Shown in pieces: positions 34,399-55,331 of a DNA stretch of 55,607 nucleotides. Position 1 is the stretch's first letter; each line of letters opens with the position of its first letter. Source of the DNA: Acidimicrobiales bacterium (GTDB taxonomy: Bacteria > Actinomycetota > Acidimicrobiia > Acidimicrobiales > SHLQ01); contig JBPCTR010000248.1 in assembly GCA_051011575.1 (NCBI GenBank), positions 1 to 55,607 of the forward strand. The letters are read 5' to 3'. The notes beneath the pieces are model-generated. The model was not told the DNA's origin. It made no database searches and was given only the letters and a program-made list of their open reading frames with translations. Made by a program: the position numbers and the translations under genes.

Positions 34399-34414
34399 TC
34401 GAACAACTGTTCGA
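34399..34414. promoter_or_regulatory. LexA (SOS) box, perfect palindrome, in the imuA'/cyclase divergent intergenic region
   Basis: TCGAACAACTGTTCGA equals the consensus TCGAAC-N4-GTTCGA at 16 of 16 positions. It is 10 nt upstream of the imuA' start and 83 nt upstream of ATG 34498. Confidence 0.75.
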
Positions 34415-34497
34415 CCAAAAGCAACCGGGGCGACGGTGGTCGAGATTGCCCGTCTCGCCACCGCCGCCCCGACCACTCTGCGCGAGACTGACCACTC

Positions 34498-37400: not shown

Positions 37401-38220
37401 CCTCGATCGGCAGGTGCTGGCGAGGACGTTCCTCAAGCAGGACCTCGGCGGCCGGGGGGAAGCTGCGCTTGCCGCCTATCGCGCCCTCGGCAACTCGGCA
37501 GGCGAGGCACGGACTCTGAACAACATGGGGATCGCGAGCTACTTCGCAGGCGACTGGACCTCCACTGTCGACCTGTACGCGAGCGCTATCGAACGGAGCA
37601 CCGCAGCCGGTGATGTGCTCCTCGCCGGAATCGGCGCCGTCAACATGGCCGAGATCCTCGCGGATCAGGGTTACTGGGATCGTGCAATCGAAGCACTGGA
37701 TGATGTCGTTCGGAACTGGATGTCGACCGGCTATGGACCAGGCGTGGCAGTCGCTCTGTCGTTTCGAGGCACGGCGAGGTCTCGGCGTGGAGACGACGAC
37801 GCCGCGAGCGACCTCGAAGAATCACTCGATCGGGCAACGCAGATCGGCGCGAGCAGCCTCGTCGCCGGCGCCGTAGCTCGCCTTGCCGAGCATTCGCTGA
37901 TCGTCGACAACCTGGGCGACGCACAACGCTGGCTCGACCAGCTCGCCTCGATGCCCGAGGCGGCCGAAAGCGACCTGACTCGACGCCGACGGTTGTTCCA
38001 GGCGATCCTCGACAACCGGCGCTCGAACGAAGTGTCCGACGACCTGATCGAACTCGCCTACGACGGTGGAGACTTCGTGCAGGCGCTCGCCGAACACCTT
38101 CTCCACGGTGTGGCGCCCGAACTAGTCGCGCGCGACGAGCGCCTCGCCTCGCAGCTGGGCATCATCGCGTTCCCACCCTTCCCGGTCCACGCGGTCACGC
38201 CGACTGGGAGTGGCGGTTAG
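34498..38220 (+). CDS. Tandem class III nucleotidyl-cyclase-homology domains + AAA/P-loop NTPase + TPR-like helical repeats (STAND-like signalling protein, no DNA-binding domain seen)
   Basis: CHD1: MLSADISGFTALSEKL...GGEVLKFGGDALLVLF. CHD2: RQGVQTGRVFAGFLGSPYRRTYTLMGDPVNTAARM. Walker A GPAGVGKS lies at 35836-35859. The long C-terminal part is helical repeat sequence (YRRALD, ALSWYTRAL, YRALGN...). Confidence 0.85.
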   Translation: MTDLSAFVPRLAAELGATPDSHWTSVPGSMLSADISGFTALSEKLAGKGKAGAEEITELINTCFTALIDSAYDYGGEVLKFGGDALLVLFRGDDHERRVVSAGQAMQHALHSSPAAKRANLTMTVGAAEGPFDVFLAGSDYRELLITGTRATEVIHLEGEAAKGETLVSPTLAAVLPPDMVGRTHAGGHEVIGRTDNQITGPPDRVSDDLDLSSFVPPAVLEQFVAFEEMGGEHRLVTVGFAMVAGIAAEIDRVGADGTAATLGRLVDDIMAATAPFGVTVLHTDIAPDGVKFVLCAGAPVNPGDTGDALLEAALRIAEIDSPLVIRQGVQTGRVFAGFLGSPYRRTYTLMGDPVNTAARMLGKADDRDIVAVDTVVDDTRTIFATEELEPFHVKGKTEPIVAHKVFASSDEVRRHGSATRLVGRKTELDSLTRAIGELGEVIVLSGPAGVGKSRLLDAAWDMAEGLTIFQAACTPYGASSPYSVFRPLLRSGSGIDVHADPDHAGDLLTKIVRSFAPALRPVLPLLAIPFGAKVSSTPEFEAIEPKFLRERVHAAVVDFLDAVLDGPVMLVVEDLHWVDDASGDLVSHLVRAAESRPWAAIVTRRPEGEWVPPESAHLSELALDPLDDDDIRSLAIQVCARALTDHELDEIAARAAGNPLFAIELTAALDGGSVDALPDSIEGMIATRIDSLDPAERRLVRLASVFGQTFAVADFTAVLTDVAPELTFRPKPIADLLEPGRNKTMRFTHALYRDVAYEGLPFRRRTRLHATVGRSLEDRAKDPDAIAGLLSLHFAEARVREKAWHYSLIAGERAASTGANIEAAATYRRALDSAPRSVDPGERAEVSERLGDAAWSSGKFEDAVHALQRVRRLSTDEAVDLRARRKIGMIRENEGRQTQALSWYTRALRTLDDRQVSPEVEAERGHLLIATAGIRHRQADDKTGLALAEEAERIALRIDDASVLASALDRQVLARTFLKQDLGGRGEAALAAYRALGNSAGEARTLNNMGIASYFAGDWTSTVDLYASAIERSTAAGDVLLAGIGAVNMAEILADQGYWDRAIEALDDVVRNWMSTGYGPGVAVALSFRGTARSRRGDDDAASDLEESLDRATQIGASSLVAGAVARLAEHSLIVDNLGDAQRWLDQLASMPEAAESDLTRRRRLFQAILDNRRSNEVSDDLIELAYDGGDFVQALAEHLLHGVAPELVARDERLASQLGIIAFPPFPVHAVTPTGSGG

Positions 38221-41200
38221 GCCTTCTCCGCATCCTTGGCGGCATCCTCGAACTCGTCGAGAGCGTCTTCGACATCGGTCGCCAGCAGGATCACGCCTTC
38301 CTGGAAGTGCTCGATCGCCTCGTCGATGTCATCGGGATCACCACCACGGGTCATCGCTGTATTGATCGCCTCGAATGCGAGGTTGCGCCCGAGGTTGCCA
38401 AGCGTGTTCAGGAGGTCGTCGCCGACCGCTTGCGGCAGGCCTTTGTCGAGTGCGTCGTCGACCTCCTTGGCCGCCTTCTTCAGGTCCTTGATCGCCTGGG
38501 AGATCTCGATCGGCGTCTTCTCGAGATGCACGACCGCCTTGTTGACGTTCTCGAGCGTCTTCTCGAGTTCTTTCCGAATCTTGTTGTCTGGCTCGTTCGC
38601 GATGAGGTCGTTGATCTGGTCGACGAGGAATCCGAGACCGCCGACCACCTCGTAGCTACCGACCGCACTCGCAACATTGCCCAGTGCGTCGGTGCCCGTC
38701 ACCGTGATGGTGAAGGCGCCGACCGAAGTTGTCGGGAGCAGGTCCCCACTCTCGAGAGTGAGGCCCCCGACGACGGCCGAGCATGATGCACCCGCGGGAT
38801 CCTGACAGCTGAAGATCGCAGCGACTTCCTGCCCTTGCGCGTACACCGAGCCGACCTGCGGTTGGATCAACGTCACTGCGGGAGCGAGGGTGTCAATCGT
38901 GACGATCTCGATCGCCGTCTGACCATCGGCCACCACGAACTCGACAGTGTGGATGCCGTCACCGGCAACGGCGACTCCCGCAGGCGTCAGCTCCTCGAGC
39001 GGCGCTCCGTCGAGACTGAACTGGATCGGCAGACCATCTGCGTCGGCGGTCACGGTGACCGGGCCCGTGTAGAAGCCGTTTATCGGATCGCCCCCTACCG
39101 ACGCGGTCACCGCCGTCGTGAGGGAGACGGGCGGCGGCGGTGCGACCTCGTCGCTGAAGTTCTCGGCCTTGTTCGTCGACACGCCCACGTTCCCGGCGTT
39201 GTCCTTGGCCTGAACCAGGAACTCCATGTTCGTGGGCACGGTCGGGAACGTCACCGCGCCAACCCAGCGTCCGCTGGCCGGCGGTGACTCGATGAGATCG
39301 ATTCCGAACCACTCGGCCGTCACATCTCCGGCGCTCGGTGTGGCGAGCACGTACACGCGGTCGACCCCGGATCCGCCGTGGTCATCGACCTCGGCGGTGA
39401 TGGTGAGCTGCGCTCCGTCGAGGACCGAATCGACCCTGAGAATCGCGGGCGCCGACCGGTCGGCATCATTCGAGTAGTAGACGATCACGTCGATGTCGTC
39501 GTCGAGCCGCTGAACGCCGGCGTCTTCGGTGCCCCGGTACTGGCCGGTTGCAAGCACGAGGTTCTGACGCTGACCCTCCGGTTTCTCGAATGTGGAGATC
39601 CGCTGGGGAACGGTGGGGTAGTTGATGTTGTCGAGGTCGGGCTCGGGCGCCTGGCTCGACTCGTCGAAGACCGGAACGGCCACCACCGGATCGATCCCCA
39701 CGTAGCTCGAGGTCATGTCGAGGATGATCGCCCCTCGGGCCTCGGTTTCGATCTGCGTCGTGTCCAGCGCAAGCACGTCGGTCACGTCGAGCGTGAGCGA
39801 CGGCTGGATAGGCCGACCCGGCTGCGTGATCGTGCTCGGGTCGCCCGCGTCGTTCAGGTTCGAGTAATAGAGCTCGGTCCCGACCGGATTCGGAATGTTG
39901 TCGGCGTCGGCCATGAAGACCACCGCACCCTCCCCGGTCAGTGGATCGATGAAGGGCTCGTTGTCGGGAGCCTCCGGGGCGGGCTGGGCGGGCACGCCCA
40001 CACGGAAGAAGGGCAGGCCGTAGAGCGTGCTCTCCTGGATCGCCTTCTCGTGGTACACACTCACGTCGACGAGCTCGGAATAGGCCTCCTGCTTCGCGAA
40101 CTGCATCGCCTGTCCGATCGTGGTGATGTCGTTCGGATCGAGGGCATCGACGTTGATCGGATTGACCAGGTTCCGGGCGAACAGCTGGAGCAGCCGCTCG
40201 GTGTAGCCGACGGTCTCGGTATCGCCGTAGCCGAAGCCGGTGTTTCCGACGTATACCGCTTGCTGATCGATGAACGCCTCAGCCCAATCGTCGAGGACGC
40301 CGGTGAGACCGGTCGACGTGTTGGGCACGTTCAGACCAGAGTGACAACCCATCGAGAAGATGATCGACCCGTCGAGGAGACCGTCGGCCGCTGGCAGCGC
40401 ATCGATCTCACTCACTTCGAAGTTGTCGTTGAAGCCCGGCACCTGATCGCCCGCGGCCGGGAGCGCCCGGTAGTGGTCGAAGTGGGCATTGAAGGAGACG
40501 ATGTCGGGGCCGTTCGCGTCGCCGGCACCATCGGGGGTCAGGAGACGATCTCCGATGTCGGTGGCGGTCCATGCTCCGTCGCCATTGAGGTCGTCGATGC
40601 CGTCTTCGAGATCACGGTCGAGGTCGGCCGGAGCGATCGGACCAGTGAGCTCGTCGGCGATTGCCTCGGAGCCGTCGATCAGGAAGTCGTAGCCGGCTAC
40701 CAGACCGGTCTCGGCGGCGAGAATGCCGTCGAAGAGAATGAACTGGTCGATGTAGTCCTTGATCTGCTGCGGCTCCTCGAGCACGCGCCCGAGGGCGGCA
40801 TCCGGAAGGTAGATGAAGCGATCACCAAATGGCAGCGCCGCGGTCTCGCCGTAGGGATCGTCGGACAGGAACGTCGACGCCCAGAACGAGCTCGTGAAGG
40901 CGTTGCGACCCGTGAGATCGAAGCGGTAATCGAACTCGTTGGCGACCTCGGTGGCATCGGCGAGCCGAGCCATCGGTAGCAGATCATCGGAGCCGATCAG
41001 CACGATGTTCTCGATATCGCGGAGCGCCCGAATCGGATCGAGAACGTCGCTGATGATCTCGGAGACGATCGCGTTCGTCGTATTCGGATCGCAGGCGTCC
41101 TCAGCGTTGGCCGGGTTGTCGAGTGCCGCGTATGCAGCCCGCACGTCGGCGAAGCCATCGACCGGCACCACCACACCGGAGAGCCCCATCTGGCTGATTT

Positions 41201-44200
41201 CGGGGTCGGAATCCATCGCCGTCACGAGGTCGTTCAGAGAGTTGGTGACGAGCGAGCGCCCACCCGCGCCGTAGATCTGCTCGAAGCGTTGTTCGTTGAC
41301 CAGAATGACCGTGTTCAGATCGGCTGGAAGGGTGGCGAAGTTCGGAGCCACGCCGGCCGCCGCAGCGGGAAGCGCACCACGAGCCACACAGGCAGGTACC
41401 GCCTCCGCACCTTCGACCTGGATCTGGAGAACGGCCGGGTCCGGGCTCGTCACTCCGTCGTGGCCGTGCACCTGAATGATGTATCGGCCTGCCGGCAGGC
41501 GTTCGGCGATGATGGTCTCCTCGTCGAGGCTGCGGCTGTTCGACACCTCGACGAGAGCGAGGTCGTCGAACTCCTGATCGAGTCGACGGAACCCCTGATC
41601 GGGCACCGCTTCGGACTGATCGGCGTCGGGATCGAGCACCGGCACGATCGGATCGGCGTCGGATGTCTGGCTGAGAGCAGTCGACGACACCGGGGCTCCG
41701 AGATCGCTGTACAGAACGATGTCGAAGTCGGCCGGGAGACCGCTCAGGTTCACAGCGATCGAGTCGCCGTCGCCGATGTCGACGTGGAACAGATCGATGT
41801 CGGTGTCGGTCGAGATGTTCACGAGGTACACCGTGTCCTCGGCGGCGGGGATCCCAGGCGGAGTGTCGTTCGGCTCGAAGGCCTCGACGACCTCGAGAAT
41901 CGCCGAGGACTCCACGACGGCGGTCGTTCCGACGATGCGCGCGTCGCTGTTCACGAGGCTCGCGCCCACCGAGACCGAGGGCTGGATGTCGAAGTCGAGG
42001 TTGTAGGTCTGGCCCGGCGTCTGATCATCAACACCTGGCTCGACCCCGGTGAACGTCCAAACGAGTCGTCCGTCGACGAGCTCGGGCTCGAGGTCACCGC
42101 CGAGCGGCGCGGTCACGACGGCAGATCCCGGGACGTATCCAGCCCCTGCCGGAAGCTCGACGGCGACCGTGATCGTGCGGGTGCGCGTTCCGGTGAGCGC
42201 GAACTGGGCTTGCATCCCGATCGGCGGCATGACTCCGGGAATGTCCGCGGCATCGATGTTCTCGAATGCCACACCCCATGGCAGTGCGCCAGGCGGCAGC
42301 AGTCCGAGAAGCAGATCGCCGAGCGTGAAGCCGGCGAGTTCGTCAGCGGGCAGTGCATTGACCAGGTCGGCAACCGTGGCCGCCCCCCAGTCCGGGGACC
42401 CGAGCAGATCGGCGAGGAGCATGTTGCCCAGGCCGAGGTCCGGATCGTTGACCGCATCGCTGACCAGCCACGGTCCGTTCCCGTTGACATTCGAGAGCGC
42501 CGCAGTGACATCCCCCTGCGTGAGGTTCCCGATCTCGTTCAGCCGAATGAAGGCGAGGAAGACACCCAGGTCGCCGAGCTGCCCGCCGCTCAGCGTGAGC
42601 GCCGGGAGCAGTTCGGAGAACGTGACATCCCCGAACGACTCGAAGTCGGCCAGCGTCAATCCATTCGTCACGGCGTGCGCGTCGAGTATCACTTCGAGGT
42701 CGACCACGGGGTCGCCGGCCACATCGACCGCCAGTGCCAGGTCGAGCCATGTCACCGTGTCGAGACCGTCGCCGAGGTCTCCGAGGAGCGTCTGCGCGAA
42801 CAGTGGATGATCGACGGGAAGATCGCCGAGTGTGAGGTTGGCGAAGTTGGTGAGGTCGGCGATGGTGATCGAGTTCGCGATCGCCCATGCGGCGACCGCG
42901 CCATACAGGTCTTGCGCCGTATTCGTCGTGAGGTGTTCAGCAAGGTCGGGCAGACGGAAGTCGTCGGAGGCCGCGCCGAGGTCGGCGAGCACGGCGCCGG
43001 GCAGAATCGCTCCGGCGAGGAAGGCGTCGCGCAGCGTTGCGGTCTCACAATCGACGAGCGAGCAGTCGACGATGTTTCCGATCGCACCGAACGGAAGGTC
43101 GATCAGCTCGATCGCCCCGAAGGGACTTTCGGCCAGATCGATGGCGCCGAAGGGAATCTGATCAACCGTGATGGCACCGAACGGAATCGCACCAAACGGG
43201 AGTCCGTTGACGTCGATGGCGCCAAAGGGGATCGCACCGAACGGCAACTCCTCGAGCCCGATCGCTCCGAATGGAATCGCACCGAACGGGTTGGGGCCGA
43301 CCGCAACGTGGTCGACCTCGATCGCTCCGAAGGGGGATCCCTGGACGTCGATCGCACCGAAGGGGATTCCTCCGACCGTGCCATCGGTAGAAATCGCACC
43401 GAATGGCGTACCGGTCAGGTCGATGGCGCCGAACGGAATCGCCCCGAACGGGATCGCACCGAACGGCAGCTCCTCGACGCCGATGGCGCCGAACGGAATC
43501 GCACCGAACGGAATCGAGGTGTAGTCGATGGCGCCGAACGGAATCGCCCCGAACGGCACGCCCCGTACTCCGAGGTCGACGACCGTCGTCGAACCGACCG
43601 GTGTGGCCCCGGTGCAGTCGAGGCCGTACTCGGCCATCAGCGAACACCAGTCGGCCTCGATCTCGGCCGGACCCGTCCGATCGGCGTCGAGCGGAATCTG
43701 ATCGAGCGAGGTCTCGCCGAGCACGATCGCGCCGAACGGAATCGCCCCGAACGGAGCTCCGTTCACGTCGATCGCGCCGAACGGGATCGCACCAAACGGG
43801 ACCTGCTCGAACGCGATGCCATCGATGTCGATGGCCCCGAACGGAATCGCACCGAACGGAATCGACTCGAAGTCGATCGCCCCGAAGGGAATCGCACCGA
43901 ACGGCGTGCCGGCGAGCTCGATCGCACCAAACGGAATCGCACCAAACGGAGTGGAGGCGATCCCGAGCTCGCTCAGGTTGATGGCGCCGAACGGCGCCTC
44001 ATCGACGTCGATCGCACCGAACGGAATCGCACCGAACGGAATCGCACCAAAAGGCACGTCGGACAGTCCGACCGACATGACGGTCGCGGTCGGGTCGAGG
44101 GTGTTTCCGGCACCGCACGGCCGATCCGAGTCGGCGAGAATGGCACACCAGTCCTCGGCGATCTCGGCCGGCGCGAGCCGGTCGGCGTCGAGCGGAATGT

Positions 44201-47200: not shown

Positions 47201-50200
47201 TCGTACCGAAGTTGTCGCCGGGGCCGGTGATGGACGACAAGGCCTCGCCGTCGCTCCACGTGGTGCCGGTTCGGGTGTACACATAGGCCGCACCCGACGC
47301 CGCACCTGCGCTTCCGTCGAAGAATGCGGTGACGACTGCGAGGTCGCCGTCGACGGCAACCGAGTGGCCGTGAAGGTCGCTGGCGTCCTGGTCCGATCCG
47401 GGTTGCACGAGGGTCGCTTCGAATTCGACGGCGCTCGACTCGACCCGATACACGTGGGCCTGACCGACGTCGGCGGTCGGCCCGAAGTCGGCGCCCCGCT
47501 CCGACACGACCACGGTGTCGCCGTCGATGGCCACCGACCAGCCGTGCTGATTGCCAGAGTTGTCGGCCGGAGCGAGGGCTTCGCCGATGGTCACGAGGCT
47601 GTCGCCGAAGCTCGGGTTCTCGGTCACGGTGTAGCGATAGACCGCTGCGTCACCCGTACCGCCAGTGATCGACGGTGCGCCCACGGCCACGAGGTATGTC
47701 CCGTTACGGAACGCGGACGTGGTCTGCTCGACATCGACCGAGAAGCCGAACGATTCGTAGCCAACCGGTGCCGGAATCGACTCGGAGAGTACCCAGTCAT
47801 CGAGAATGAAGTCGTAGCGGAACAGGTGAACCGTGCCCATGGTTGCGCCGAACGGGTCCGGTGCGCCCACGGCGACCACCATGTTGCCGGCGTCGCCGTC
47901 GGCCTCTTGACGCGTACCGGAGATTGCCACGGAGACGCCGAACCATTCCCCCATCACCGGGCTCGGCGACGAGATCTCGGTCACGAACGTCCACTCCTCG
48001 GTGAACAGGTCGCGCTCGAACACGTATGCGCTTCCCTCGCCTCCGTTGCCGTTGCGCGCACCCACGACCATCCAGTTGTCGTGGATGTCGATGTCCTGAC
48101 CGAAGAAGTCACCGGCCGCGGCATCGGGCGCCTCGATGCGTCCGGGAACCGGCGCCACCGGGTCCGGGAGCTCGATGGCGTAGACCGCTCCAGAGTTCTC
48201 GCCCTGCTGGTCTTCAAAGTTGTGACCGACCGCAAGGGTCCCTGCCGATACCGCGAGATATCCGTCGTTGTCGTTGACGAAGGGCTCCTCCTGATCCGAC
48301 ACGGTGTCGACCTGGAGCGGCGTGGGCGGATTCGTCAGCAGGCTGAAGGAATGGTTGTCGCCACGGAAGGTCGAGGCGACGAGCACTCCCGCGTCGGCAT
48401 CGAGCTGCACGCCGAATCGCTGGTTGAGCGGCGTCGCACCGGTCTCGAGGGTTGCGGTCGGCACGGCTCCTGACGCCTCGTCGTACACGTACACCGCGCC
48501 CACGTTCGAGCTGGCGCCGTCGGCGCCGACGATGATCCAACCATCGGAGATCGCGACTTCGGTGCCGAAGTCGTCGTTGACCTCGGCCTCGTCGAGCGTC
48601 CGGTCGAACACGAACGGCGACAGGGCGTCGGGGCGTGTGAGCACGTCGACGTAGCCGGACTGACCGGAAGCGCCGAGCGTGCCCGGAGCGCCGACGGCGA
48701 GGACGTTGCCCTCGAGGTGAACGCTTCCGCCGAAAAGGTCATCGCTGGCTGTCTTCGGCGCATTGGCCGAGATCGTTTGTGGCGTGTCGGTCGCCCACGA
48801 TGCGGCCCCTCCGTCGTAGACATCCACCTGACCGGCGCCGCCGTTGAAGGCGCCGACAACGAGAGAGTCGGCTTCGATGTCGAGATCCATCACGTCGGAC
48901 GGAACACCCGTGACGGTGGTCAGCTCGGCGAAAGGCGAGCCGAACCCTGGCCGTTCGAATACGCGCACGCTTCCGACGCGTCCGGCAGCGATCACATCGC
49001 CCTCGATCGACACCGAGCGGAGGCTGAAGGTGCCGTCGTCGATGCGCTGACTGAGCGTCCACTCGCCGAGCACTCGCTCGAACACATAGAGCGACCCGAT
49101 CTCGTTTGCCACTACTTCGCGAGCTCGTGCAACGACAACCATCGTGTCGCCGTCAACGTCGACGTTCTGGCCGAATCGGTTGTAGCTACCGCCGAACTCT
49201 GGCAGCACCTTTCCGGAAGGCGGACTTTGATCGGGGATGACGAACGTGGCCAGGTCTGTTCCTGCGGTGACAGGTCCGGTGGCCTCCAGAACCCACAGGA
49301 CGGTCCCGCCATCGCTCGCAACGTCGACATACTGGCCACTCGACACATCGACGCTGGCGAACACGCCGTCATTGCCGTTGTCGGAGAAGCTTTCGCCCTG
49401 TCCGATGCCCTGATCGTTCAACGACAGGAGGTCGCCAGCGAGTACGAGTTCCTGCCCGAAGCCGGTGGATATCCCCGCAAGGGTCGTCTGGCCGGTGGTC
49501 TGGTCCCAGATCGTGATGCCGACACTGCCGCCGAGTTTGATCGCCGCGCGTAGGTCATCGCCGTCGACCGCCCAACCGAACAAGCCGTTGTTCTGGGGGG
49601 CAGACGCCTCGATGGTGTTGCTCGGAACACCGGTGATGGTGCGGTAGCGGTAGACGTTGCCATTGTCGGTGAAGCCGCTCGAGTCTGCATACGGGGCACC
49701 GATCCACCAGTCGCTGACCGAGCGCGACACGCTGAAACCGAACTGGTCGCCGGCCGCAAACCCGTCGACACGCTCCTCCTGAGGGAAGCTGAAACGGTAG
49801 GTGTGTATCGAGCCCGAGTCGACGCCGTTGGCATCGGCGAGCGGCGCGCCCACGATCGCGAACGGATAGCTGATACCGACCGAGGAGCCATAGCGGCTGT
49901 TTGGATCGCCATTCCTCGTAGCTCGCAGCACGAACTGACCGGTCGCGTCCCGGCGGAAATGCTGTACCTCGTCGGCGCCCGGGGCACCGATGGTCAGGCC
50001 TGGCATGTCCATGGCAACCGCGGCGCCGAACTGAGTGCTGGCCGTGCCTGCGATGGTCTGCACATCGGTCCACGTCCCGGCGATGTTCCGCATGATGTAC
50101 ACGACGTCGTCATCGGGCACGCCTATTGCTGCCCAATCGCCGCTGATGGCTCCCGATGGGAACACGGGAGTCGAGACCGGCGCGCTCGCCGAATACCAAT

Positions 50201-53200
50201 AAACCGATCCGGCGTCGACGTTGTTGATGTTGTCGTCGCGTCGGGAACCGACAAGCACGTTCTCATCCGAGAGGCCGACGGCGTGGCCGAACTGGTCGCC
50301 ACCGGCGCCATCGGCCGCACGGAAGGTCTCGTCCTGAGTCCAGGTTCCGGCCACGTTGTCGAATGCGTACGCGGCGCCATTGCGCGTGGACACGCCGGTC
50401 TCTTGGGCGCCGGCGGCACCGATCAGCGCGATGCCGCCGCTGAGCTCGACATCGATTCCGAGACCGTTCGAGGTGTTGGCGTCGCTTGCGACGAGCTTCT
50501 CCGGGGTGCCCCAGCTCGAAGCGGACGATCCCTCGTACACCCACGCGGCGCCCGAATCAGGCGAGAGCGCGTTGTCATTGTCCTCGAACGCGTGGCCGAC
50601 GAGCAGGGTGAGTCCCTCGAGGTCCACCGCCGAACCGAACCAGCCGTCTCCGGTCGTGGCTGCGTCGGGGTTGGTGAGCGTGGTCGCCGTCGACCATGTG
50701 CCTTCGATTCGCTCGAACACGTGGACGGCGCCGGGTGTGATCGTGACATCGTCATTGGCGGTGACGACGGCGATGTCGCCATCGATTGCCACGGCGAACC
50801 CGAAGTCGGGGTCGGGCACCGATGGACCGACCGTTTGGTCGACCACCCAGTTGGAGCCATTCGAAAAGAGCGTGTCCGCCGTGCCGGCCCGGCCGGCGAT
50901 GATCTCCGACCCCAGCATCGCGACCGACCGGTACGGTCCCGCGATCGTCGAGTTCAGAACGAATGGAGAACCCTCACTCGGGCGCTCGTACACGACCAGG
51001 TCACCGCCGTTGGCGATTGCGGCGAAGACGTTCCCCTCGATCGCCACCCCGTGGGTCGGGTGCGAGGCGAGCACGAGATTCTGAATTTCGATCGTCTGCG
51101 CGATCGTCCAGTCGCCTGTTCCGGGGCTTCGCTCGAGCACCCGGAATCGAGTCCACACGGGTCCGGGGAATCCAGGCTGGCTCACAATCGCCCAGTCGCC
51201 GTCGACATCGACAGCGGTGCCGAAGCGCTGGTGCCCATCGGTCGCGATCAGCTTGTTCGGGACCACCTCGGGAAGGGCTGCTCTGATCGAAAATTCGTCG
51301 ACCGTCACCTCGAGCGGGGCCGACGCAACGAGTCCGATGAGGTCACATCGGCCAGGCGGAGCGCACTGGACGAGCAGGTAGTCGTCGGCCGCGGTCGGCG
51401 TGTACGTATCGAGGGTGACATCGACCCGACCGAAGTTGAGGAACGACGATCCGGCGATGTCGACCCGTCCGTGGTTCGCGGTCGTCGTGGAGTCGCCGTC
51501 GATGACGAGCTCGAGGACACCCCCCGGATACGAGACGTTGCCCGAGTAGGTGAGAATCGCTCCCGGCGACACGACCACGCGTCCGGCCTCGCTCACGTCG
51601 GGTCCGATCGTGAAGTCGCCCGTCACCCCCAGAATCGATGTCGACGCGGTGTTGTAGCTGAGCGAAGCACCGATGCTGCTACCGGCCGTATCGGCAACGA
51701 GTATTCCGTTGTTCTGGATCGTTCCCGTTCCGTCGAAGGTCACCGGAGCGTCGAGGAAGACCGACGCAGGCGCTGCGCTGTCGATGATGATCGTGCCATT
51801 CAGAGTGACGTCGTCATTGAATGACACACCATCTTCCGGCGGGCCGACGGCGGTCGAGAACACGTTGAGGACGCCCTCGATCGCAGCGGGACCGTTGATG
51901 ACGATCCGTCCACCCAGATTGACATCGACGGTCGCCCCGGCACCGATGATCAACCTGTCGACCTCTTCCTGCGTGTCGACGTCGGCGCCGACGGGAACGA
52001 TGGCGGTGTCCGTCGGTCCGGGCACGAGCCCGGTGTCCCAGTTCGCAGGATCGGACCAGGCGGAATCGACAGCGCCGGTGAACACATGCGTGAGCGGCAC
52101 TGCGTTGAACGACACGGCCTTGCCGGTGTCGGCACCTGCCGCCGCACCTGGCGCACCGACGACAGCCGAGTTGCCATCGAACTCGATCGAGAAGCCGACG
52201 CCGTCGCCGACGACCGTTCCTGTGGGAATCAACTGGTCGACGGGCACGCCCGGCGAGGGTCCCACACCATCGGAGTCGTTGAAGCCGGTTCCGTCGACGT
52301 CGCGGAACAGCGCGGCTTGTCCCCCCGCTCCGGGTCGTCCGACGATCACGTTCCGGCCGACCATCGAGAGATAGCTGTTCGTGTCGAAGGCCCCGACGGC
52401 GGCGCCGAGTGTGCTGGTGGCCGTGTCCTCGATGAGATACGTCGTGGCGCCAAGTCTGACGATCAGATGAATCTGCAGGGGTGCGCCAACTCCCTGGTCG
52501 CCGATGCCGGCGACTGAGAGATGGCCGCGATCTGATGCGACTGCCGTTCCCACGCGATCGCCGGTGGCCCATGGCGCATTGAACTCCTGAACATGCGTGA
52601 AGCCGCTACCGGTGTCCTGGTAGACGTGCAGCCCGCCCGCGTCTGCACCGGCGAGATCGTCCCCGGGCACGCCCGCCCCGAGCACGAAGAGCCCGCTCGA
52701 GTCCTGGCTCACGGCGACCGAAAAACCGAGCTGGTCGCCTGCGGCAACCAATGGGGTTGAGATCGACGAGGTCGTCCAGCTGACGCCAAAAGTCGCCTCC
52801 CACAGCTCTCCCGCGTCGGCGGCGATGTTGTCGCTGAGCGGCGAGGAGACCACGAAGTTGTTGAGATCCTTCCACGCGACGCCGGCGCCGTACCGATCAC
52901 CAGCGCTGGACCCGCTCAGCGTGTTGCCGAGTTGCGTCCACGTCGCTGCGCCCGTTCGCTCGAATACATATGCCTCACCGGGGGAACCGCCAGTTCCAGT
53001 GATGTCGGGGTTGCCGATCACGACCCGATCGCCGAGCAGGTCGAGGCCGAAGCCGAATTCACCGTTGGCGAACGCTGATCCGACCGGTGCGACGATCACA
53101 CCGTCGGCGGTCCAGGGCGCGCCGGGACCCGTCCGTTCGTACATGTGGACACGACCGGCATCGGCGGCGGCATCGTCGTCTTGCAGAGCTGCGACTGCCA

Positions 53201-55331
53201 TGCGGTCGCCGTCGATCGAGACCGAGTGGCCGAAACGATCACCATCGGAGTCGCCAGTCGATGTGAAGGCAACATCGAATATTGAATTCGAGAAGGACCG
53301 GATGCGAATCTCGCCGGAATTCTGTCCGAGCACGTCGGATCCGGGCCCAGCCAGCGCCCAAGAGTCACCGAAGGCGACAACCTGGAATCCCCAAAGGTCG
53401 CCGGGCTGTGCCGACGCCGGTGTATGCGTGACGATCGAGTTGTAGTTGTCGGTGGCGCTGTCGACAACGCTCCACAACGTTCCACCTGTGCCGTTCGCGG
53501 CGGTGTCTCCCTGAACCACGTGGGTTCCCGAGAAGTCGACCGAATGCGGACCTGGAACGGAGCCTCCTGGACTACCCCGGAACGAGAGAGGGTCAGTCGG
53601 GGGCGGAGCGTTACCTGCCGCGATCACGTATTGCCACACACGGTCGGTTCCCGGTTCGCCGATGAATAGCGAAGCGTCCCCATCGATGTCGGACTCCACC
53701 GCGACGGCGCTTCCGAGCTCCGCATTGTCGATCGTGCCCGACCGAACCTCGTACGGCGTGCTCAGCGACCCCGGCGAACCTGACGTGTACTGCGTATAAA
53801 CCGCTGAACCCGCGTTCACCAGGGCGGGCACTACGCGATCTGCCACCGGGGCGCCGACCAGAATGTGGGTTCCGCTGTCGGACACCGAGACGATCGACCC
53901 GAAGCTGACAAGCGTGCGAGGCGGCACGATCTCGAGTCCGGTGGAGGTGAGGTAGTCGGAGCCCGACGTCTCGTACACGTAGGCGCGATCGGAGCCGCGC
54001 GCCCCGACCACGAGAACCCCGTCGGCAAGGTCGACGCCCGAACCGAAGTTCGCGAACGATTGACCACCACTCGCCGTTGCACCGCAAGCGCCGCCTGTGG
54101 GATCGCAGTCGAACACGGTGGTCTGCAGGGACCAGCCGAAGGGTGTGGTGGGCGCCTGCTCGTACACGTACACGGCGCCCGCGTTGGTGCCGTTGCCGTT
54201 GTTGTCGAACTCGGCGCCGATCGCGATGCGGTTCTCATGCACGTCGACCGAACTACCGAAACCGGAGTTCGCCACCGGCGCCGCGATCACCGTCTGCTGC
54301 ACCCAGCCCGCTCCTCGGTCCTCGAACACGTACACGACCTCGGCGTCGCGGGCCGACACCGCCAACGTCGTGATGCCGCCGATCCCGTGCATCGCCATGG
54401 CGTCTCCCAGGCCGTCGAAGCTCGCATCCGCGATGGGGTCGAGAGTCTGGTCTTCGGTGATCACTGGGTCGACCGTGATCGGGTAGACGGCGCCCGCTGC
54501 ATCGATGGAGAGAACGATCGAGCCGTCGACCACGTCCATGCTCGATGGGAGCGCGCGCAGGTCGGCGTCGAACGCCACGAGGTCGCGGTAGTAGAGCGAC
54601 GCCTCGTCGGCGCGCTCCAGGAGCACCGTGTTCGGGTCGAGGAGCGATGGCGTTGCGTCGAGCACCTCGACGGTGATCTCGAAGGTGGGGGTGACCGCCA
54701 CCGGGGCGAGGATTGTGAAGCCGTGCTCGATACCTCGGTCGACCTCGAAGAACCATTCGGTAAGCGAAGGGTGATGCGCGTACTCGACCACGGTGCCGTC
54801 GGAGATGGCTCCAGGGCTCGTGGTCTCGAAGACGCCGATGGAGTTGGTCGAGAGGATGACCGGAGCGGCCGACGACGCGGCGATGACCGCTGCGCCCGGC
54901 GTGAACAGTGCGTCGAAACGATCGGTGGCGAGCGACGGAATCCCACGGTCGATCGGCGCGGTCAGCGGTGCAGTGGCGGCAGCAGCAGGAGGAACGGCGG
55001 CGACCGCGCTCCCGGCTTCGTGCGCCGCGATCTGGCTCTGAATCGTGGCCCACTCGAGCGGCGTCAGTCCCTCGGGCACCCCGTCGAACGTGACGATGTC
55101 GGCGGGAACGTCGGTGACCACCTCGGCGGCAGCGGCGAGCGCGTCGTTGACGGCCGTGGCCGAACTGTGGTCGACGTCGCCGGCCAGCGATGCGGGCGCC
55201 ACGCTCATGACGGAGGCAGTCATGACCAACACCAAAACGACGGCCAAGAGCCGCCCCAAATCTGGGGCCTGACCAAGCCCGCTCGCGATCCTGACTCGGC
55301 TGCGGGACGCAGCTCTCGTCGAAACCGTCAC
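38217..55331 (-). CDS. Giant secreted multidomain protein (5,704 aa): FG-GAP-like propellers, beta-helix-like insert, PFGAI pentapeptide array, PPC-like domain, clan-CD-like peptidase module, Ig-like domains, helical tail
   Basis: One uninterrupted reading frame of 17,115 nt. GTG 55329-55331 is preceded by GAAGGGACGGGCAA. The translated sequence is consistently protein-like with recognisable repeat families throughout. All other long ORFs across this span are shadow frames. Confidence 0.85.
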   Translation of the reverse strand: MTVSTRAASRSRVRIASGLGQAPDLGRLLAVVLVLVMTASVMSVAPASLAGDVDHSSATAVNDALAAAAEVVTDVPADIVTFDGVPEGLTPLEWATIQSQIAAHEAGSAVAAVPPAAAATAPLTAPIDRGIPSLATDRFDALFTPGAAVIAASSAAPVILSTNSIGVFETTSPGAISDGTVVEYAHHPSLTEWFFEVDRGIEHGFTILAPVAVTPTFEITVEVLDATPSLLDPNTVLLERADEASLYYRDLVAFDADLRALPSSMDVVDGSIVLSIDAAGAVYPITVDPVITEDQTLDPIADASFDGLGDAMAMHGIGGITTLAVSARDAEVVYVFEDRGAGWVQQTVIAAPVANSGFGSSVDVHENRIAIGAEFDNNGNGTNAGAVYVYEQAPTTPFGWSLQTTVFDCDPTGGACGATASGGQSFANFGSGVDLADGVLVVGARGSDRAYVYETSGSDYLTSTGLEIVPPRTLVSFGSIVSVSDSGTHILVGAPVADRVVPALVNAGSAVYTQYTSGSPGSLSTPYEVRSGTIDNAELGSAVAVESDIDGDASLFIGEPGTDRVWQYVIAAGNAPPPTDPLSFRGSPGGSVPGPHSVDFSGTHVVQGDTAANGTGGTLWSVVDSATDNYNSIVTHTPASAQPGDLWGFQVVAFGDSWALAGPGSDVLGQNSGEIRIRSFSNSIFDVAFTSTGDSDGDRFGHSVSIDGDRMAVAALQDDDAAADAGRVHMYERTGPGAPWTADGVIVAPVGSAFANGEFGFGLDLLGDRVVIGNPDITGTGGSPGEAYVFERTGAATWTQLGNTLSGSSAGDRYGAGVAWKDLNNFVVSSPLSDNIAADAGELWEATFGVSWTTSSISTPLVAAGDQLGFSVAVSQDSSGLFVLGAGVPGDDLAGADAGGLHVYQDTGSGFTHVQEFNAPWATGDRVGTAVASDRGHLSVAGIGDQGVGAPLQIHLIVRLGATTYLIEDTATSTLGAAVGAFDTNSYLSMVGRNVIVGRPGAGGQAALFRDVDGTGFNDSDGVGPSPGVPVDQLIPTGTVVGDGVGFSIEFDGNSAVVGAPGAAAGADTGKAVSFNAVPLTHVFTGAVDSAWSDPANWDTGLVPGPTDTAIVPVGADVDTQEEVDRLIIGAGATVDVNLGGRIVINGPAAIEGVLNVFSTAVGPPEDGVSFNDDVTLNGTIIIDSAAPASVFLDAPVTFDGTGTIQNNGILVADTAGSSIGASLSYNTASTSILGVTGDFTIGPDVSEAGRVVVSPGAILTYSGNVSYPGGVLELVIDGDSTTTANHGRVDIAGSSFLNFGRVDVTLDTYTPTAADDYLLVQCAPPGRCDLIGLVASAPLEVTVDEFSIRAALPEVVPNKLIATDGHQRFGTAVDVDGDWAIVSQPGFPGPVWTRFRVLERSPGTGDWTIAQTIEIQNLVLASHPTHGVAIEGNVFAAIANGGDLVVYERPSEGSPFVLNSTIAGPYRSVAMLGSEIIAGRAGTADTLFSNGSNWVVDQTVGPSVPDPDFGFAVAIDGDIAVVTANDDVTITPGAVHVFERIEGTWSTATTLTNPDAATTGDGWFGSAVDLEGLTLLVGHAFEDNDNALSPDSGAAWVYEGSSASSWGTPEKLVASDANTSNGLGIDVELSGGIALIGAAGAQETGVSTRNGAAYAFDNVAGTWTQDETFRAADGAGGDQFGHAVGLSDENVLVGSRRDDNINNVDAGSVYWYSASAPVSTPVFPSGAISGDWAAIGVPDDDVVYIMRNIAGTWTDVQTIAGTASTQFGAAVAMDMPGLTIGAPGADEVQHFRRDATGQFVLRATRNGDPNSRYGSSVGISYPFAIVGAPLADANGVDSGSIHTYRFSFPQEERVDGFAAGDQFGFSVSRSVSDWWIGAPYADSSGFTDNGNVYRYRTITGVPSNTIEASAPQNNGLFGWAVDGDDLRAAIKLGGSVGITIWDQTTGQTTLAGISTGFGQELVLAGDLLSLNDQGIGQGESFSDNGNDGVFASVDVSSGQYVDVASDGGTVLWVLEATGPVTAGTDLATFVIPDQSPPSGKVLPEFGGSYNRFGQNVDVDGDTMVVVARAREVVANEIGSLYVFERVLGEWTLSQRIDDGTFSLRSVSIEGDVIAAGRVGSVRVFERPGFGSPFAELTTVTGVPSDVMDLDIEADSLVVGAFNGGAGQVDVYDGGAASWATDTPQTISANAPKTASDDLFGGSVHLEGNVLAVGAPGTLGASGQSGYVDVLTRPDALSPFVFDRTLDEAEVNDDFGTEVAISDGWIIVGADGASSNVGAVYVYDEASGAVPTATLETGATPLNQRFGVQLDADAGVLVASTFRGDNHSFSLLTNPPTPLQVDTVSDQEEPFVNDNDGYLAVSAGTLAVGHNFEDQQGENSGAVYAIELPDPVAPVPGRIEAPDAAAGDFFGQDIDIHDNWMVVGARNGNGGEGSAYVFERDLFTEEWTFVTEISSPSPVMGEWFGVSVAISGTRQEADGDAGNMVVAVGAPDPFGATMGTVHLFRYDFILDDWVLSESIPAPVGYESFGFSVDVEQTTSAFRNGTYLVAVGAPSITGGTGDAAVYRYTVTENPSFGDSLVTIGEALAPADNSGNQHGWSVAIDGDTVVVSERGADFGPTADVGQAHVYRVESSAVEFEATLVQPGSDQDASDLHGHSVAVDGDLAVVTAFFDGSAGAASGAAYVYTRTGTTWSDGEALSSITGPGDNFGTKARVEDGQVIVSSFAGGSNGAGLVQGFSFDVSDGWVGGDVFEWEAGVPGDGMGSGIALGEDGTVMVGTAEDDTSAGVDAGGVHEYSTVVDSAPGKLVANDAGIGRAGDGSLFGGSVDIDGEWMIVGATEDFAASEPGNAYMFRRIAGEWVLFDEFGDDIPSGPNFDFGIEVAVGGDWAAVTEQDNSTWIFNFDGISWTLVNDISFTGANRALDVDIDGVNDRLIASDPILGVGVGNVHIYDLIVSGSHVEHTVNLPGDIADAWFGQFVAIDGDVAMATASRDQGTPGVVNTGTVRVFERSGTTWNQTQTLESGVGGQLFGGGGVELSGSTALIGEPGGNAAWVYTFDGLEWGPEQELTVLGEPFADQLGTTVDLDGDLAVIASPRASVDGMFAGEAHVFERTGSTWTVQQSITASDREMGDSFAAAVGLSGTDLAVGAPFDHNNEGIFAGGVYTFELVAPLVAGKIISPDDADIRFGHDIDIDGDRAIVGALGDPSVPGDFGAAWVLTRDGLTNGWTVLQELVPSTPVLDDRFGASVAISGSRIAVRTITKIVIFEEVTVDVWTEVGTINTPSEGGALDLEGNTLFAGRLGQPSGGFADAGIVEVWTGSGATWSLDQTLEPSVPRTEGWFGGSIDVDGGRVLIGSPGREGVGDPGEAYIFELASIWDEIDRLVVTPPATRSVGAAVALDGDLAVVGAGRDGDLTATGVVHVFEAPATGTDWTQVAQILDPAGVNGDSFGQSVDIVGERIGVGVSGGDPGGIVGAGDLRIYDRTAPDAWTLVSTLAASDGVGSDFLGESIALAPDSILGGAPFEDNTNGNNAGSVYFFDTPDVLIPDDPSLTFTLGLQPGAQPSVIGGGTGIAVSELTDAATVIEDNAGNTTSVGSTGLQEAGVAESPFGAIRLDATPFGAIAANDPVLSALPLLSVGLDQPGGWAAILDSDPAGEYDDLPLVNITLGDVFSDPDLAGAVGAIPFGAIDVNGTPFGAIPFGAIALGGIPISDIPLDADRLAPAEIAEDWCAILADSDRPCGAGNTLDPTATVMSVGLSDVPFGAIPFGAIPFGAIDVDEAPFGAINLSELGIASTPFGAIPFGAIELAGTPFGAIPFGAIDFESIPFGAIPFGAIDIDGIAFEQVPFGAIPFGAIDVNGAPFGAIPFGAIVLGETSLDQIPLDADRTGPAEIEADWCSLMAEYGLDCTGATPVGSTTVVDLGVRGVPFGAIPFGAIDYTSIPFGAIPFGAIGVEELPFGAIPFGAIPFGAIDLTGTPFGAISTDGTVGGIPFGAIDVQGSPFGAIEVDHVAVGPNPFGAIPFGAIGLEELPFGAIPFGAIDVNGLPFGAIPFGAITVDQIPFGAIDLAESPFGAIELIDLPFGAIGNIVDCSLVDCETATLRDAFLAGAILPGAVLADLGAASDDFRLPDLAEHLTTNTAQDLYGAVAAWAIANSITIADLTNFANLTLGDLPVDHPLFAQTLLGDLGDGLDTVTWLDLALAVDVAGDPVVDLEVILDAHAVTNGLTLADFESFGDVTFSELLPALTLSGGQLGDLGVFLAFIRLNEIGNLTQGDVTAALSNVNGNGPWLVSDAVNDPDLGLGNMLLADLLGSPDWGAATVADLVNALPADELAGFTLGDLLLGLLPPGALPWGVAFENIDAADIPGVMPPIGMQAQFALTGTRTRTITVAVELPAGAGYVPGSAVVTAPLGGDLEPELVDGRLVWTFTGVEPGVDDQTPGQTYNLDFDIQPSVSVGASLVNSDARIVGTTAVVESSAILEVVEAFEPNDTPPGIPAAEDTVYLVNISTDTDIDLFHVDIGDGDSIAVNLSGLPADFDIVLYSDLGAPVSSTALSQTSDADPIVPVLDPDADQSEAVPDQGFRRLDQEFDDLALVEVSNSRSLDEETIIAERLPAGRYIIQVHGHDGVTSPDPAVLQIQVEGAEAVPACVARGALPAAAAGVAPNFATLPADLNTVILVNEQRFEQIYGAGGRSLVTNSLNDLVTAMDSDPEISQMGLSGVVVPVDGFADVRAAYAALDNPANAEDACDPNTTNAIVSEIISDVLDPIRALRDIENIVLIGSDDLLPMARLADATEVANEFDYRFDLTGRNAFTSSFWASTFLSDDPYGETAALPFGDRFIYLPDAALGRVLEEPQQIKDYIDQFILFDGILAAETGLVAGYDFLIDGSEAIADELTGPIAPADLDRDLEDGIDDLNGDGAWTATDIGDRLLTPDGAGDANGPDIVSFNAHFDHYRALPAAGDQVPGFNDNFEVSEIDALPAADGLLDGSIIFSMGCHSGLNVPNTSTGLTGVLDDWAEAFIDQQAVYVGNTGFGYGDTETVGYTERLLQLFARNLVNPINVDALDPNDITTIGQAMQFAKQEAYSELVDVSVYHEKAIQESTLYGLPFFRVGVPAQPAPEAPDNEPFIDPLTGEGAVVFMADADNIPNPVGTELYYSNLNDAGDPSTITQPGRPIQPSLTLDVTDVLALDTTQIETEARGAIILDMTSSYVGIDPVVAVPVFDESSQAPEPDLDNINYPTVPQRISTFEKPEGQRQNLVLATGQYRGTEDAGVQRLDDDIDVIVYYSNDADRSAPAILRVDSVLDGAQLTITAEVDDHGGSGVDRVYVLATPSAGDVTAEWFGIDLIESPPASGRWVGAVTFPTVPTNMEFLVQAKDNAGNVGVSTNKAENFSDEVAPPPPVSLTTAVTASVGGDPINGFYTGPVTVTADADGLPIQFSLDGAPLEELTPAGVAVAGDGIHTVEFVVADGQTAIEIVTIDTLAPAVTLIQPQVGSVYAQGQEVAAIFSCQDPAGASCSAVVGGLTLESGDLLPTTSVGAFTITVTGTDALGNVASAVGSYEVVGGLGFLVDQINDLIANEPDNKIRKELEKTLENVNKAVVHLEKTPIEISQAIKDLKKAAKEVDDALDKGLPQAVGDDLLNTLGNLGRNLAFEAINTAMTRGGDPDDIDEAIEHFQEGVILLATDVEDALDEFEDAAKDAEKA
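38220..38645 (-). other. C-terminal charged helical tail of the giant protein (about 140 aa)
   Basis: LVDQINDLIANEPDNKIRKELEKTLENVNKAVVHLEKTPIEISQAIKDLKKAAKEVDDALDKG...DALDEFEDAAKDAEKA is K/E/D/A/L-rich with a heptad-like appearance. No LPXTG motif, TM segment or lipobox. Confidence 0.5.
39990..41330 (-). other. Gingipain (C25)/clan-CD-like putative cysteine peptidase module; candidate dyad His4950 (40482-40484) and Cys4996 (40344-40346)
   Basis: The order of blocks resembles C25 as I remember RgpB: NIVLIGSDDLLPM (cf. VLLIGDHKDIP), IVSFNAHFDHY (cf. YTGHGS), SIIFSMGCHSGLN (cf. FIFDVACVNG) and STLYGLPFF (cf. FGDPSL). The His is not followed by Gly, so the assignment is tentative. Confidence 0.45.
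41455..41885 (-). other. PPC-like (bacterial pre-peptidase C-terminal type) beta-sandwich domain
   Basis: EPNDTPPGIPAAEDTVYLVNISTDTDIDLFHVDIGDGDSIAVNLSGLPADFDIVLYS...LPAGRYIIQVHGHDG follows the EPND...D.D.f.f.v..g..l.v.l....D.dl.ly.....G.Y.i.V pattern. Confidence 0.55.
43080..44513 (-). repeat. PFGAI pentapeptide-repeat array (aa 3607-4084 of the giant protein)
   Basis: I count about 38 exact PFGAI units, mostly as PFGAIPFGAI doublets separated by D/E-h-x-x-x pentapeptides (DVNGA, DIDGI, ELAGT, DFESI...). On the plus strand this appears as GATCGCACCGAACGG-type 15-mers with synonymous variants. Confidence 0.9.
44715..51255 (-). repeat. FG-GAP-like beta-propeller blades, block B (about 41 blades)
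   Basis: Same unit as block A. Examples: GAVHVFERIEGTW, GSAYVFERDLFTEEW, GAAYVYTRTGTTW, GEAHVFERTGSTW, GEAYIFELASIW, GSVYFFDTPD. Boundaries are approximate. Confidence 0.75.
51270..52080 (-). other. Beta-helix-like insert between the two propeller blocks (about 270 aa)
   Basis: WSDPANWDTGLVPGPTDTAIVPVGADV, then Gly/Thr/Val/Asn-rich short strands (ATVDVNLGGRIVINGPAAIEGVLNVF..., VTFDGTGTIQNNGILVA..., ILTYSGNVSYPGGVLELVIDG). These resemble autotransporter-associated / parallel beta-helix repeats. Confidence 0.4.
52110..54430 (-). repeat. FG-GAP-like beta-propeller blades, block A (about 14 blades)
   Basis: A recurrent unit of about 55-60 aa: (D/N)xFG.SV...G..h.VGAP..D......G.vYVFe(R)....W. Examples are FGSIVSVSDSGTHILVGAP and DRFGHSVSIDGDRMAVAAL...AGRVHMYERTGPGAPW. 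Boundaries are approximate. Confidence 0.75.
55182..55331 (-). other. Predicted Sec-type signal peptide of the giant protein (aa 1-50)
   Basis: Positively charged n-region (RAASRSRVR), hydrophobic core LLAVVLVLVMTASVMSV, then APASLA|GD, an AxA-like cleavage context. Confidence 0.65.

Follow-up and report, generated by a model that had tools for sequence, protein, structure and literature searches.

A giant FG-GAP propeller protein of an Acidimicrobiales bacterium carries a uniform pentapeptide array and a predicted gingipain-like peptidase

The window analysed here is a stretch of 55,607 bp that spans the whole of one contig (JBPCTR010000248.1) from the metagenome-assembled genome of an Acidimicrobiales bacterium. 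Its largest feature is an open reading frame (ORF) for a protein of 5,704 amino acids, in which a predicted Sec signal and stacks of FG-GAP_2 blades are followed by an array of identical PFGAI pentapeptides, a series of conserved C-terminal modules and a predicted cysteine peptidase of the gingipain fold (Table 1). A gene encoding cyclase homology, AAA_16 and TPR domains converges on this ORF. The giant protein represents the form with FG-GAP propellers within a large uncharacterised family, and here we describe its architecture, its relatives and the readings of its function that the evidence allows.

A preliminary description of this DNA had proposed that one uninterrupted 17.1-kb ORF encodes a single giant exported polypeptide, and both parts of the proposal are borne out. 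The chance of 5,704 stop-free codons at 65% GC is ~1e-63, and the GC content of the ORF is 0.81 at third codon positions (GC3) versus 0.49 at second positions (GC2), which marks it as the true coding frame. GC3 is uniform along the ORF, and the base composition is the same as that of the remaining contig. The GenBank entry for the product (MGI9607629.1, 'hypothetical protein') has 5,668 residues, its start being called at Met37 (window 55221-55331, minus strand, for the segment in question). That start is probably mis-called. The GTG codon is the furthest upstream start possible, with an in-frame TGA 12 nt upstream of it, and it is preferred because of this upstream stop, because a Shine-Dalgarno-like AAGGGA motif lies 7 nt upstream, and because it yields a complete signal region; initiation at Met37 would delete the basic n-region and half of the sole hydrophobic segment (residues 26-47). 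The signal region consists of an Arg-rich n-region, an h-region at residues 27-44 and then ASLA|G, and the orthologues likewise start with a basic and a hydrophobic segment. No second hydrophobic segment occurs anywhere in the protein, whose net charge is -602 and whose Lys content is 0.5%. Among its 15 cysteines, 14 make up seven close pairs (409/416, 1323/1329, 3729/3739, 3896/3906, 4090/4095, 4648/4747 and 5509/5517), a spacing that suggests disulfide loops; the sole unpaired residue is Cys4996.

That the ORF is an assembly artefact, a chimera or a pseudogene instead of one functional gene is extremely improbable. The window is a single metagenomic contig, and the corresponding region of the closest relative, L001 (positions 1-19400), is distributed over three frames (3, 1 and 2), one of the breaks falling within the array. 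Against such an origin stand the 5,704 codons without a stop, the uniform GC3 and the six independent assemblies that share the module order in one ORF. Repeat collapse is unlikely because the longest exact direct DNA repeat within the ORF is just 33 nt, because 21 different 15-mers encode the 38 PFGAI units, and because every domain junction of the window protein is found again in independent assemblies. In L001 the neighbouring cyclase-TPR gene is split as well, which points to an error-prone assembly there; indel errors are probable in that sequence, one of them within its PFGAI array.

Table 1. Features of the giant gene and of the gene that converges on it, in window coordinates
Feature	Residues	Window position	Strand	Basis
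Whole ORF, 5,704 aa plus stop		38217..55331	minus	GTG start, no internal stop
Predicted Sec signal peptide or signal anchor	1-50	55182..55331	minus	Inferred from sequence
Conserved N-terminal domain, including TEWFFEVDRGIEHGFTIL	about 110-300	54432..55004	minus	35-45% identity to relatives
FG-GAP_2 blade block 1, ~13 blades	292-1075	52107..54458	minus	PF14312 E 8.6e-30; self-trained hidden Markov model
G8-like / beta-solenoid insert (280 aa)	1076-1355	51267..52106	minus	G8 and RemA matches via homologous copies
FG-GAP_2 blade block 2, ~39 blades	1356-3537	44721..51266	minus	Pfam E 9e-88 and 7e-68
Pentapeptide array, 38 exact PFGAI units (478 aa)	3607-4084	43080..44513	minus	Unit count and register
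C-x4-C loop, then Leu/Asp-rich region (TLxDL motifs)	4085-4380	42192..43079	minus	Conserved in relatives
Conserved module between Leu/Asp-rich region and PPC	4381-4490	41862..42191	minus	Conservation in relatives
PPC domain with ~40-aa inserted loop	4491-4640	41412..41861	minus	PF04151 score and relatives
Predicted gingipain-fold (C25-like, clan CD) cysteine peptidase	4641-5115	39987..41411	minus	AlphaFold2 model, Foldseek, relatives
Codon of His4950, predicted catalytic His, after strand IVSFN	4950	40482..40484	minus	156/157 conserved
Codon of Cys4996, predicted nucleophile, after strand IIFS	4996	40344..40346	minus	157/157 conserved
Linker and beta-sandwich domain(s) packed on peptidase	5116-5400	39132..39986	minus	AlphaFold2 model
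Ig/OmpL47-like region	5401-5565	38637..39131	minus	NCBIfam NF047446 weak, E 6e-3
Acidic tail, putatively helical	5566-5704	38220..38636	minus	No counterpart in 81 related loci
Tandem class-III cyclase homology domains + AAA_16 + TPR (1,240 aa)		34498..38220	plus	Pfam

Relatives of the protein were sought in three ways. A word-index search that used the 1,355 C-terminal residues as query returned 16 proteins, an exhaustive profile search returned 3,739 clusters (50% identity) at E<=1e-3 and 2,158 at E<=1e-30, and a genome scan located relatives in at least 582 species-level genomes. The hosts are Acidimicrobiia, Actinomycetes, Thermoleophilia, Chloroflexota and one Pirellulales genome, and the closest group is the Ilumatobacteraceae (L023, 63% identity). 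Throughout the family a constant core is kept in the order array, Leu/Asp-rich region, conserved module, PPC domain, C25-like peptidase and beta-sandwiches. The modules on either side are interchangeable: FG-GAP, CSLREA-motif regions, PD40, PKD and DUF642 at the N-terminal side, and RTX, PxKF and Ig at the C-terminal side. The full order of the window protein, from the N-terminal domain to the Ig region, recurs in one ORF in six other assemblies of Acidimicrobiia (L004, L007, L010, L018, L019 and L021; 3,842 to more than 4,514 residues), and it follows that the architecture is conserved and is not an assembly chimera. The combination of domains had been put forward as one not described before, which stands insofar as our literature searches turned up no account of the family, of the PxKF domain or of a protein joining C25 to FG-GAP. 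The combination is no isolated case, however, being present in six further assemblies and belonging to a family of thousands. Two carriers are cultured strains, Ilumatobacter nonamiensis YM16-303 (L015, PIASL x13) and Nocardioides marmorisolisilvae KIS18-7 (L042, in which the array region is masked by N).

The N-terminal domain that follows the signal has no Pfam match, and its counterparts occur in L004, L007, L010, L016, L018-L021 and L030. Beyond it, FG-GAP_2 (PF14312) is the only Pfam family found across the first 3,540 residues, where individual tiles score 103 to 289 bits (cutoff 23). A hidden Markov model trained on the protein itself counts ~52 blades in total, close to the ~14 and ~41 blades of the preliminary description, and super-repeats of the second block begin near residues 1356, 2038, 2395, 2801 and 3172. 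From these counts we infer that the blades make up ~2 and ~6 seven-bladed propellers, about eight in all. The insert between the two blocks, which had been taken for beta-helix-like, is a mobile module present in one to three copies in relatives. Five of 12 homologous copies match Pfam G8 (PF10162; best E 1.7e-5), the window copy itself being without a match, and a profile of the insert matches RemA (8gl6, E 4e-7) and has weak matches to the beta-helix of T4 gp5; the earlier label is thus a reasonable one.

The array downstream of the second block contains exactly 38 PFGAI units over 478 residues, as had been reported. The units are spaced 5, 10 or 15 residues apart with D-h-x-G-S/T spacers between them, and the array is broken by three ~60-residue inserts, two of which bear W-C...C loops. 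Arrays of this kind are present in 126 of 163 proteins and at 61 of 81 loci. Their unit is lineage-specific (for example PLRSV, PLGSI, PVASL, PISSL, PLKNI or PLDTI; consensus P-[LIVFM]-x-x-[IVLST]), and about 70 different units occur among 157 proteins. Within a protein the unit is uniform. The 38 copies in the window differ by 59 synonymous changes and include no one-off variant, the 53 copies of PISSL in L021 are encoded by 43 different 15-mers, and in single arrays of relatives TCN and AGY codons for Ser occur side by side. Since the units stay identical while their codons drift, the uniformity reflects selection at the protein level and not recent homogenisation of the DNA. Two multi-copy unit types per array are found in L005, L022, L053 and L059 (for example PLSAI x25 plus PLRAI x15), and these two-unit arrays may be intermediates of unit replacement.

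Spacing and layout of the arrays favour a solenoid. Over 157 relatives the distance between units is 5 residues in 2,144 cases, 10 in 757, 15 in 187 and 20 in 37, with ~60 cases off register; the five-residue spacers share the consensus D-[LVI]-x-[GAS]-[ST] independently of lineage; and the layout is collinear between the window protein and L023. Read in the register [I/S/T]-[D/P]-[L/F]-x-x, these spacers follow the A(D/N)LXX pattern known from pentapeptide-repeat helices. Additionally, the unit is not confined to the array. In 50 of the 157 relatives, which represent 28 different units, the protein's own unit is repeated in the loop of the PPC domain, in 1-10 copies at two fixed sites ~50-100 residues upstream of the peptidase; carriers include L028, L031, L037, L041, L044, L052, L058, L068, L069, L072 and L081 as well as P0009-P0013 and P0016. 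The PPC loop of the window protein contains no PFGAI.

The peptidase module was assigned by fold and through its relatives. An alignment of the window module with 14 homologues served as input for AlphaFold2 (AF2), whose models reached a predicted local distance difference test score (pLDDT) of 82-83 and a predicted template modelling score (pTM) of 0.87-0.88. A first Foldseek run, with a 765-residue two-domain model, was swamped by Ig-like matches, and the catalytic part was then modelled alone (pLDDT 83, pTM 0.88). The top five matches of this model are the gingipains RgpB (4ief_D, 1cvr) and Kgp (6i9a, 4rbm), with E 1.3e-11 to 1.1e-8, a probability of 1.00 and template modelling (TM) scores of 0.45-0.53 over 475-500 columns. 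The next are other clan-CD enzymes, namely the Craspase CHAT protease, separase and caspases. By Foldseek comparison of the AF2 model, the module is thus predicted to adopt the two-subdomain alpha/beta fold of the gingipain type. Furthermore, Pfam Peptidase_C25 (PF01364) is matched by six of the 15 aligned relatives (best E 1.1e-14), among which P0009 reaches 46.2 bits (cutoff 23) across profile positions 67-373. The predicted catalytic residues stand in the contexts IVSFN-A-H4950 and IIFS-MG-C4996, that is, His before Cys and each directly after a hydrophobic strand, as is characteristic of clan CD. Among 157 relatives, the His is retained in 156 and the Cys in all. Fold, transitive homology and the conserved dyad together support the view, voiced in the preliminary description, that the module is a gingipain-like peptidase of this clan. 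In P0004 an Asp occupies the position equivalent to His4950 (SLNADFDHY) while the near-twin P0003 has His, so that P0004 carries either a sequencing error or a pseudo-protease. The C-terminal 505 residues of the window protein have no Pfam match to a gingipain prodomain or to a sorting domain of the type IX secretion system (T9SS), and the module is preceded by the PPC domain and not by a prodomain.

The same fold could in principle belong to a ligase. By analogy with PorU, GPI8 or a legumain-type ligase, the clan-CD module might act as a transpeptidase that covalently polymerises the protein or attaches it, to the cell envelope for instance, and the pentapeptide would then serve as the motif for sorting or ligation. 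Family C25 includes the sortase-like PorU, the protein has neither an LPXTG motif nor a C-terminal anchor, and copies of the unit adjoin the enzyme. Nothing in these observations separates a ligase from a hydrolase, however, and PorU is absent from the top fold matches, while the taxonomy of the organisms implies that a T9SS context is lacking. We regard such a role as unlikely, and a proteolytic one is preferred.

The remaining modules of the cassette could be delimited by conservation, by weak profile scores or by modelling. A Leu/Asp-rich region downstream of the array, claimed at the outset, does exist and is conserved in relatives; it has neither a Pfam nor a PDB match. For the module that follows (residues 4381-4490), the proposed DUF11/CARDB sandwich had to be rejected, no such profile matching the window protein or any of 11 relatives at E<=1. 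The PPC-like domain fared better: the window protein scores 23.4 bits with PF04151, slightly short of the cutoff of 25.9, the match being split by the ~40-residue loop, and eight of 12 relatives match it (best E 6e-7). Behind the catalytic domain, the AF2 model of residues 4636-5400 (765 residues, pTM 0.87) is all-beta from about residue 5175 and shows matches to Ig-type folds together with a weak match to the RgpB prodomain (4ief_A, E 2e-3, TM 0.42). In the model this likeness probably arises from the beta-sandwich C-terminal of the catalytic domain, and residues 5116-5400 may represent an inhibitory or chaperone domain placed at the C-terminal side. As to the predicted OmpL47/Ig-like sandwiches, an Ig-like region is indeed conserved in many relatives, while the OmpL47 label has just a weak NCBIfam match of 17 bits against a cutoff of 40.

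The extreme C-terminus is the least constant part of the protein. The acidic tail of the window protein is found at none of the 81 related loci, and tails differ even among close relatives, L010 and L023 having another domain, L007, L019 and L021 RTX repeats, and others PxKF. This variability would suit polymorphic-toxin-like delivery, in which a variable C-terminal tip (in the window, the putatively helical tail) is an effector freed by the peptidase upstream of it; releasing peptidases are known in polymorphic toxins, and a weak CdiA_C match (E 0.026) was obtained. That match lies far under threshold, however, RTX and PxKF tails are not toxins, and no immunity-like gene is conserved, the cyclase gene being the sole conserved neighbour. 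Delivery of this type is therefore very unlikely.

The neighbouring cyclase-AAA_16-TPR gene overlaps the stop of the giant gene by 4 nt. Its product has no predicted transmembrane segment and, judged from its sequence, is a cytoplasmic protein. A homologue of this partner adjoins the cassette gene at 60 of 81 loci, with 33-60% identity, mostly over near full length, and with a median gap of 465 bp; 19 of the 21 loci without it lack one flank. The arrangement varies, the partner lying downstream in convergent orientation at 29 loci and in tandem at 12, or upstream in divergent orientation at 14 and in tandem at five. No second neighbour is conserved across the 81 loci, the next family occurring at 12 of them. 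This conserved partner and the lineage-specific identity of the pentapeptide both go further than the preliminary description. The partner resembles the NCBIfam 'TOMM system kinase/cyclase fusion protein' in part, over its cyclase-AAA portion. PADLOC identified no defence system: the cassette was unmatched, and the neighbour showed just a generic cyclase similarity to PycC (E 6e-10, 44 residues).

Comparison of the two genes across loci indicates that divergence in the TPR half of the partner follows that in the C25 module rather than that in the cyclase/AAA half of the same protein (regression coefficients 0.48 and 0.10). Between L030 and L018, for example, the cyclase/AAA portions are 76% identical, the TPR portions 34% and the C25 modules 49%. 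In partial Mantel tests, the distance between pentapeptide units is correlated with the identity of the TPR portions (r -0.21, p 0.007) and of the C25 modules (r -0.21, p 0.002), but not with that of the cyclase/AAA portions (r +0.13). We do not trust this signal, which is weak, because of shared phylogeny and because the 3' ends encoding TPR and C25 are adjacent in convergent loci.

These observations lead us to favour, with a probability of roughly 55%, a reading in which the window protein is a Sec-exported, very acidic adhesin-protease polyprotein of the cell surface or extracellular space that is coupled to the cyclase-STAND-TPR protein encoded beside it. The approximately eight N-terminal propellers and the G8/beta-solenoid module would bind a ligand or a surface, and the PFGAI array would fold as a pentapeptide-repeat-like solenoid that spaces this binding part from the enzyme. 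The peptidase, whose fold and conserved His4950 and Cys4996 point to catalytic competence, would cleave its own polyprotein, external proteins or both, as gingipain polyproteins and MARTX toxins do. The adjacent cyclase-AAA_16-TPR protein, whose gene is a frequent neighbour, would be functionally coupled through cyclic-nucleotide signalling.

Several points weigh against this reading. The window peptidase falls below every Pfam, NCBIfam and PDB sequence threshold: searches of these databases with the C-terminal 1,400 residues gave nothing usable, PF01364 is not matched at E<=10, and the link to C25 is a transitive one, so that membership of the family rests on the fold and on relatives. Pfam Pentapeptide profiles (PF00805 and relatives) likewise do not match residues 3600-4400 at E<=10, nor does the array match in a PDB sequence search, in keeping with its earlier designation as non-canonical. 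No wall-anchor motif and no C-terminal transmembrane segment that could retain the giant protein at the surface is present. Finally, a spacing role by itself leaves two things unaccounted for, namely that all five positions of the unit, including exposed ones, are kept identical and that so many relatives echo their own unit in the PPC loop.

A rival reading takes the protein for a multi-copy peptide-signal precursor. In that case the array would be the substrate of the in-cis C25-like peptidase, which would cut it into lineage-specific pentapeptides (PFGAI here), and a re-imported pentapeptide would be sensed by the TPR domain of the neighbour and answered by a cyclic nucleotide, a logic like that of RRNPP or Rap-Phr systems with a giant precursor. 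Each lineage having its own unit, identical within the protein although the codons drift, is consistent with this proposal; the unit copies in the PPC loop resemble a cis recognition or cleavage site, a cytoplasmic TPR-containing partner adjoins most cassettes, and its TPR identity tracks unit distance and C25 identity while the cyclase/AAA half does not. The strict five-residue register, the conserved spacers, the Cys-loop inserts and the collinear layout, on the other hand, look structural, and the units abut without processing spacers, X-Pro bonds being poor protease sites. In a search for S1 determinants, no C25 column covaries with the charge at unit position 3 (best Fisher p 0.01 among 463 columns), and the class of unit switches inside clusters at >=55% C25 identity. 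The Mantel signal is confounded by phylogeny and by TPR/C25 linkage in convergent loci, and the missing unit in the PPC loop of the window protein also speaks against a precursor. We consider this proposal, in both its cleavage and its sensing steps, doubtful, and retain the adhesin-protease polyprotein as the preferred reading.

The rest of the contig encodes other functions. Just past the cyclase gene, on the minus strand (23582-34700), lies an error-prone polymerase cassette, imuA'-imuB-dnaE2, comprising an imuA'-like gene (334 residues, no Pfam match), imuB (IMS family) and dnaE2 (1,129 residues). The segment 1-21744 contains ordinary genes of an actinobacterial chromosome: a Na+/H+ exchanger-TrkA protein, an ABC1 kinase, NucS, a VanW-like protein, a FAD monooxygenase, BipA/TypA, DUF4349, a luciferase-like monooxygenase, a PLP enzyme, an RND/MMPL transporter and a PIG-L deacetylase.

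To our knowledge, C25 or gingipain-type peptidases have been studied almost only in pathogens of the Bacteroidota. The family described here shows that free-living Actinomycetota and Chloroflexota have a very large unannotated branch of this type, in which the peptidase forms part of giant modular surface proteins and is linked genetically to a cyclase-ATPase-TPR protein. Units that are uniform within a protein, different between lineages and echoed near the protease form an unusual pattern that needs explanation; they could offer a binding surface of regular structure, act as a motif for recognition in cis or be released as a peptide, and the cultured carriers make the question directly testable. 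If the precursor proposal were true, it would define a class of peptide quorum sensing that is new and whose output is a cyclic nucleotide; this class would be widespread in Actinomycetota and Chloroflexota, with 'pherotypes' given by about 70 or more units.

Among known systems, the gingipains RgpA, RgpB and Kgp of Porphyromonas gingivalis (MEROPS C25) share the most features with the window protein. They provide the best fold match (E 1e-11), with both subdomains aligned, and have the same order of His and Cys after hydrophobic strands, a beta-sandwich behind the catalytic domain, and protease and adhesin domains in one exported polyprotein. They are, however, only 10-15% identical in sequence to the window copy, which stays below the PF01364 threshold. 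N-terminal FG-GAP propellers make up the adhesin portion of the window protein, whereas gingipains have C-terminal HA domains in that role. The window protein has no N-terminal prodomain or T9SS C-terminal domain, its host is a monoderm actinobacterium, and its gene comes with a pentapeptide array and a neighbouring cyclase-TPR gene. MARTX and the large clostridial toxins are likewise giant secreted repeat proteins (3,500-5,300 residues) with an in-cis clan-CD autoprocessing protease, but theirs is a C80 enzyme activated by inositol hexakisphosphate (InsP6), and they have type I secretion system export, glycine-rich repeats and eukaryotic targets; none of these features is seen here.

The array, for its part, shares with the pentapeptide-repeat proteins (PF00805; MfpA, Qnr, Rfr32) a five-residue period and hydrophobic residues at i and i-2, and its spacer units carry the canonical Asp at i-1. 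It differs in having Pro at i-1 in most units, in the identity of all units, in the lack of a Pfam match, and in being extracellular with Cys-loop inserts; the likeness comes from the register and the spacer consensus. The ~52 FG-GAP_2 blades in an acidic exported protein recall the giant adhesin-like FG-GAP/VCBS proteins, and we know of none among these that carries a C25-like peptidase or a pentapeptide cassette. As in RRNPP or Rap-Phr systems, a short lineage-specific peptide is encoded beside a cytoplasmic TPR protein, but here the putative precursor has 5,704 residues and 38 copies of the unit, and the putative output is a cyclase and not a phosphatase or a helix-turn-helix (HTH) protein. 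Gingipain-type polyproteins, MARTX giants with clan-CD autoprocessing, FG-GAP adhesins and pentapeptide repeats are thus each known singly, and what is new is the cassette, its partner gene and the perfect, lineage-specific arrays.

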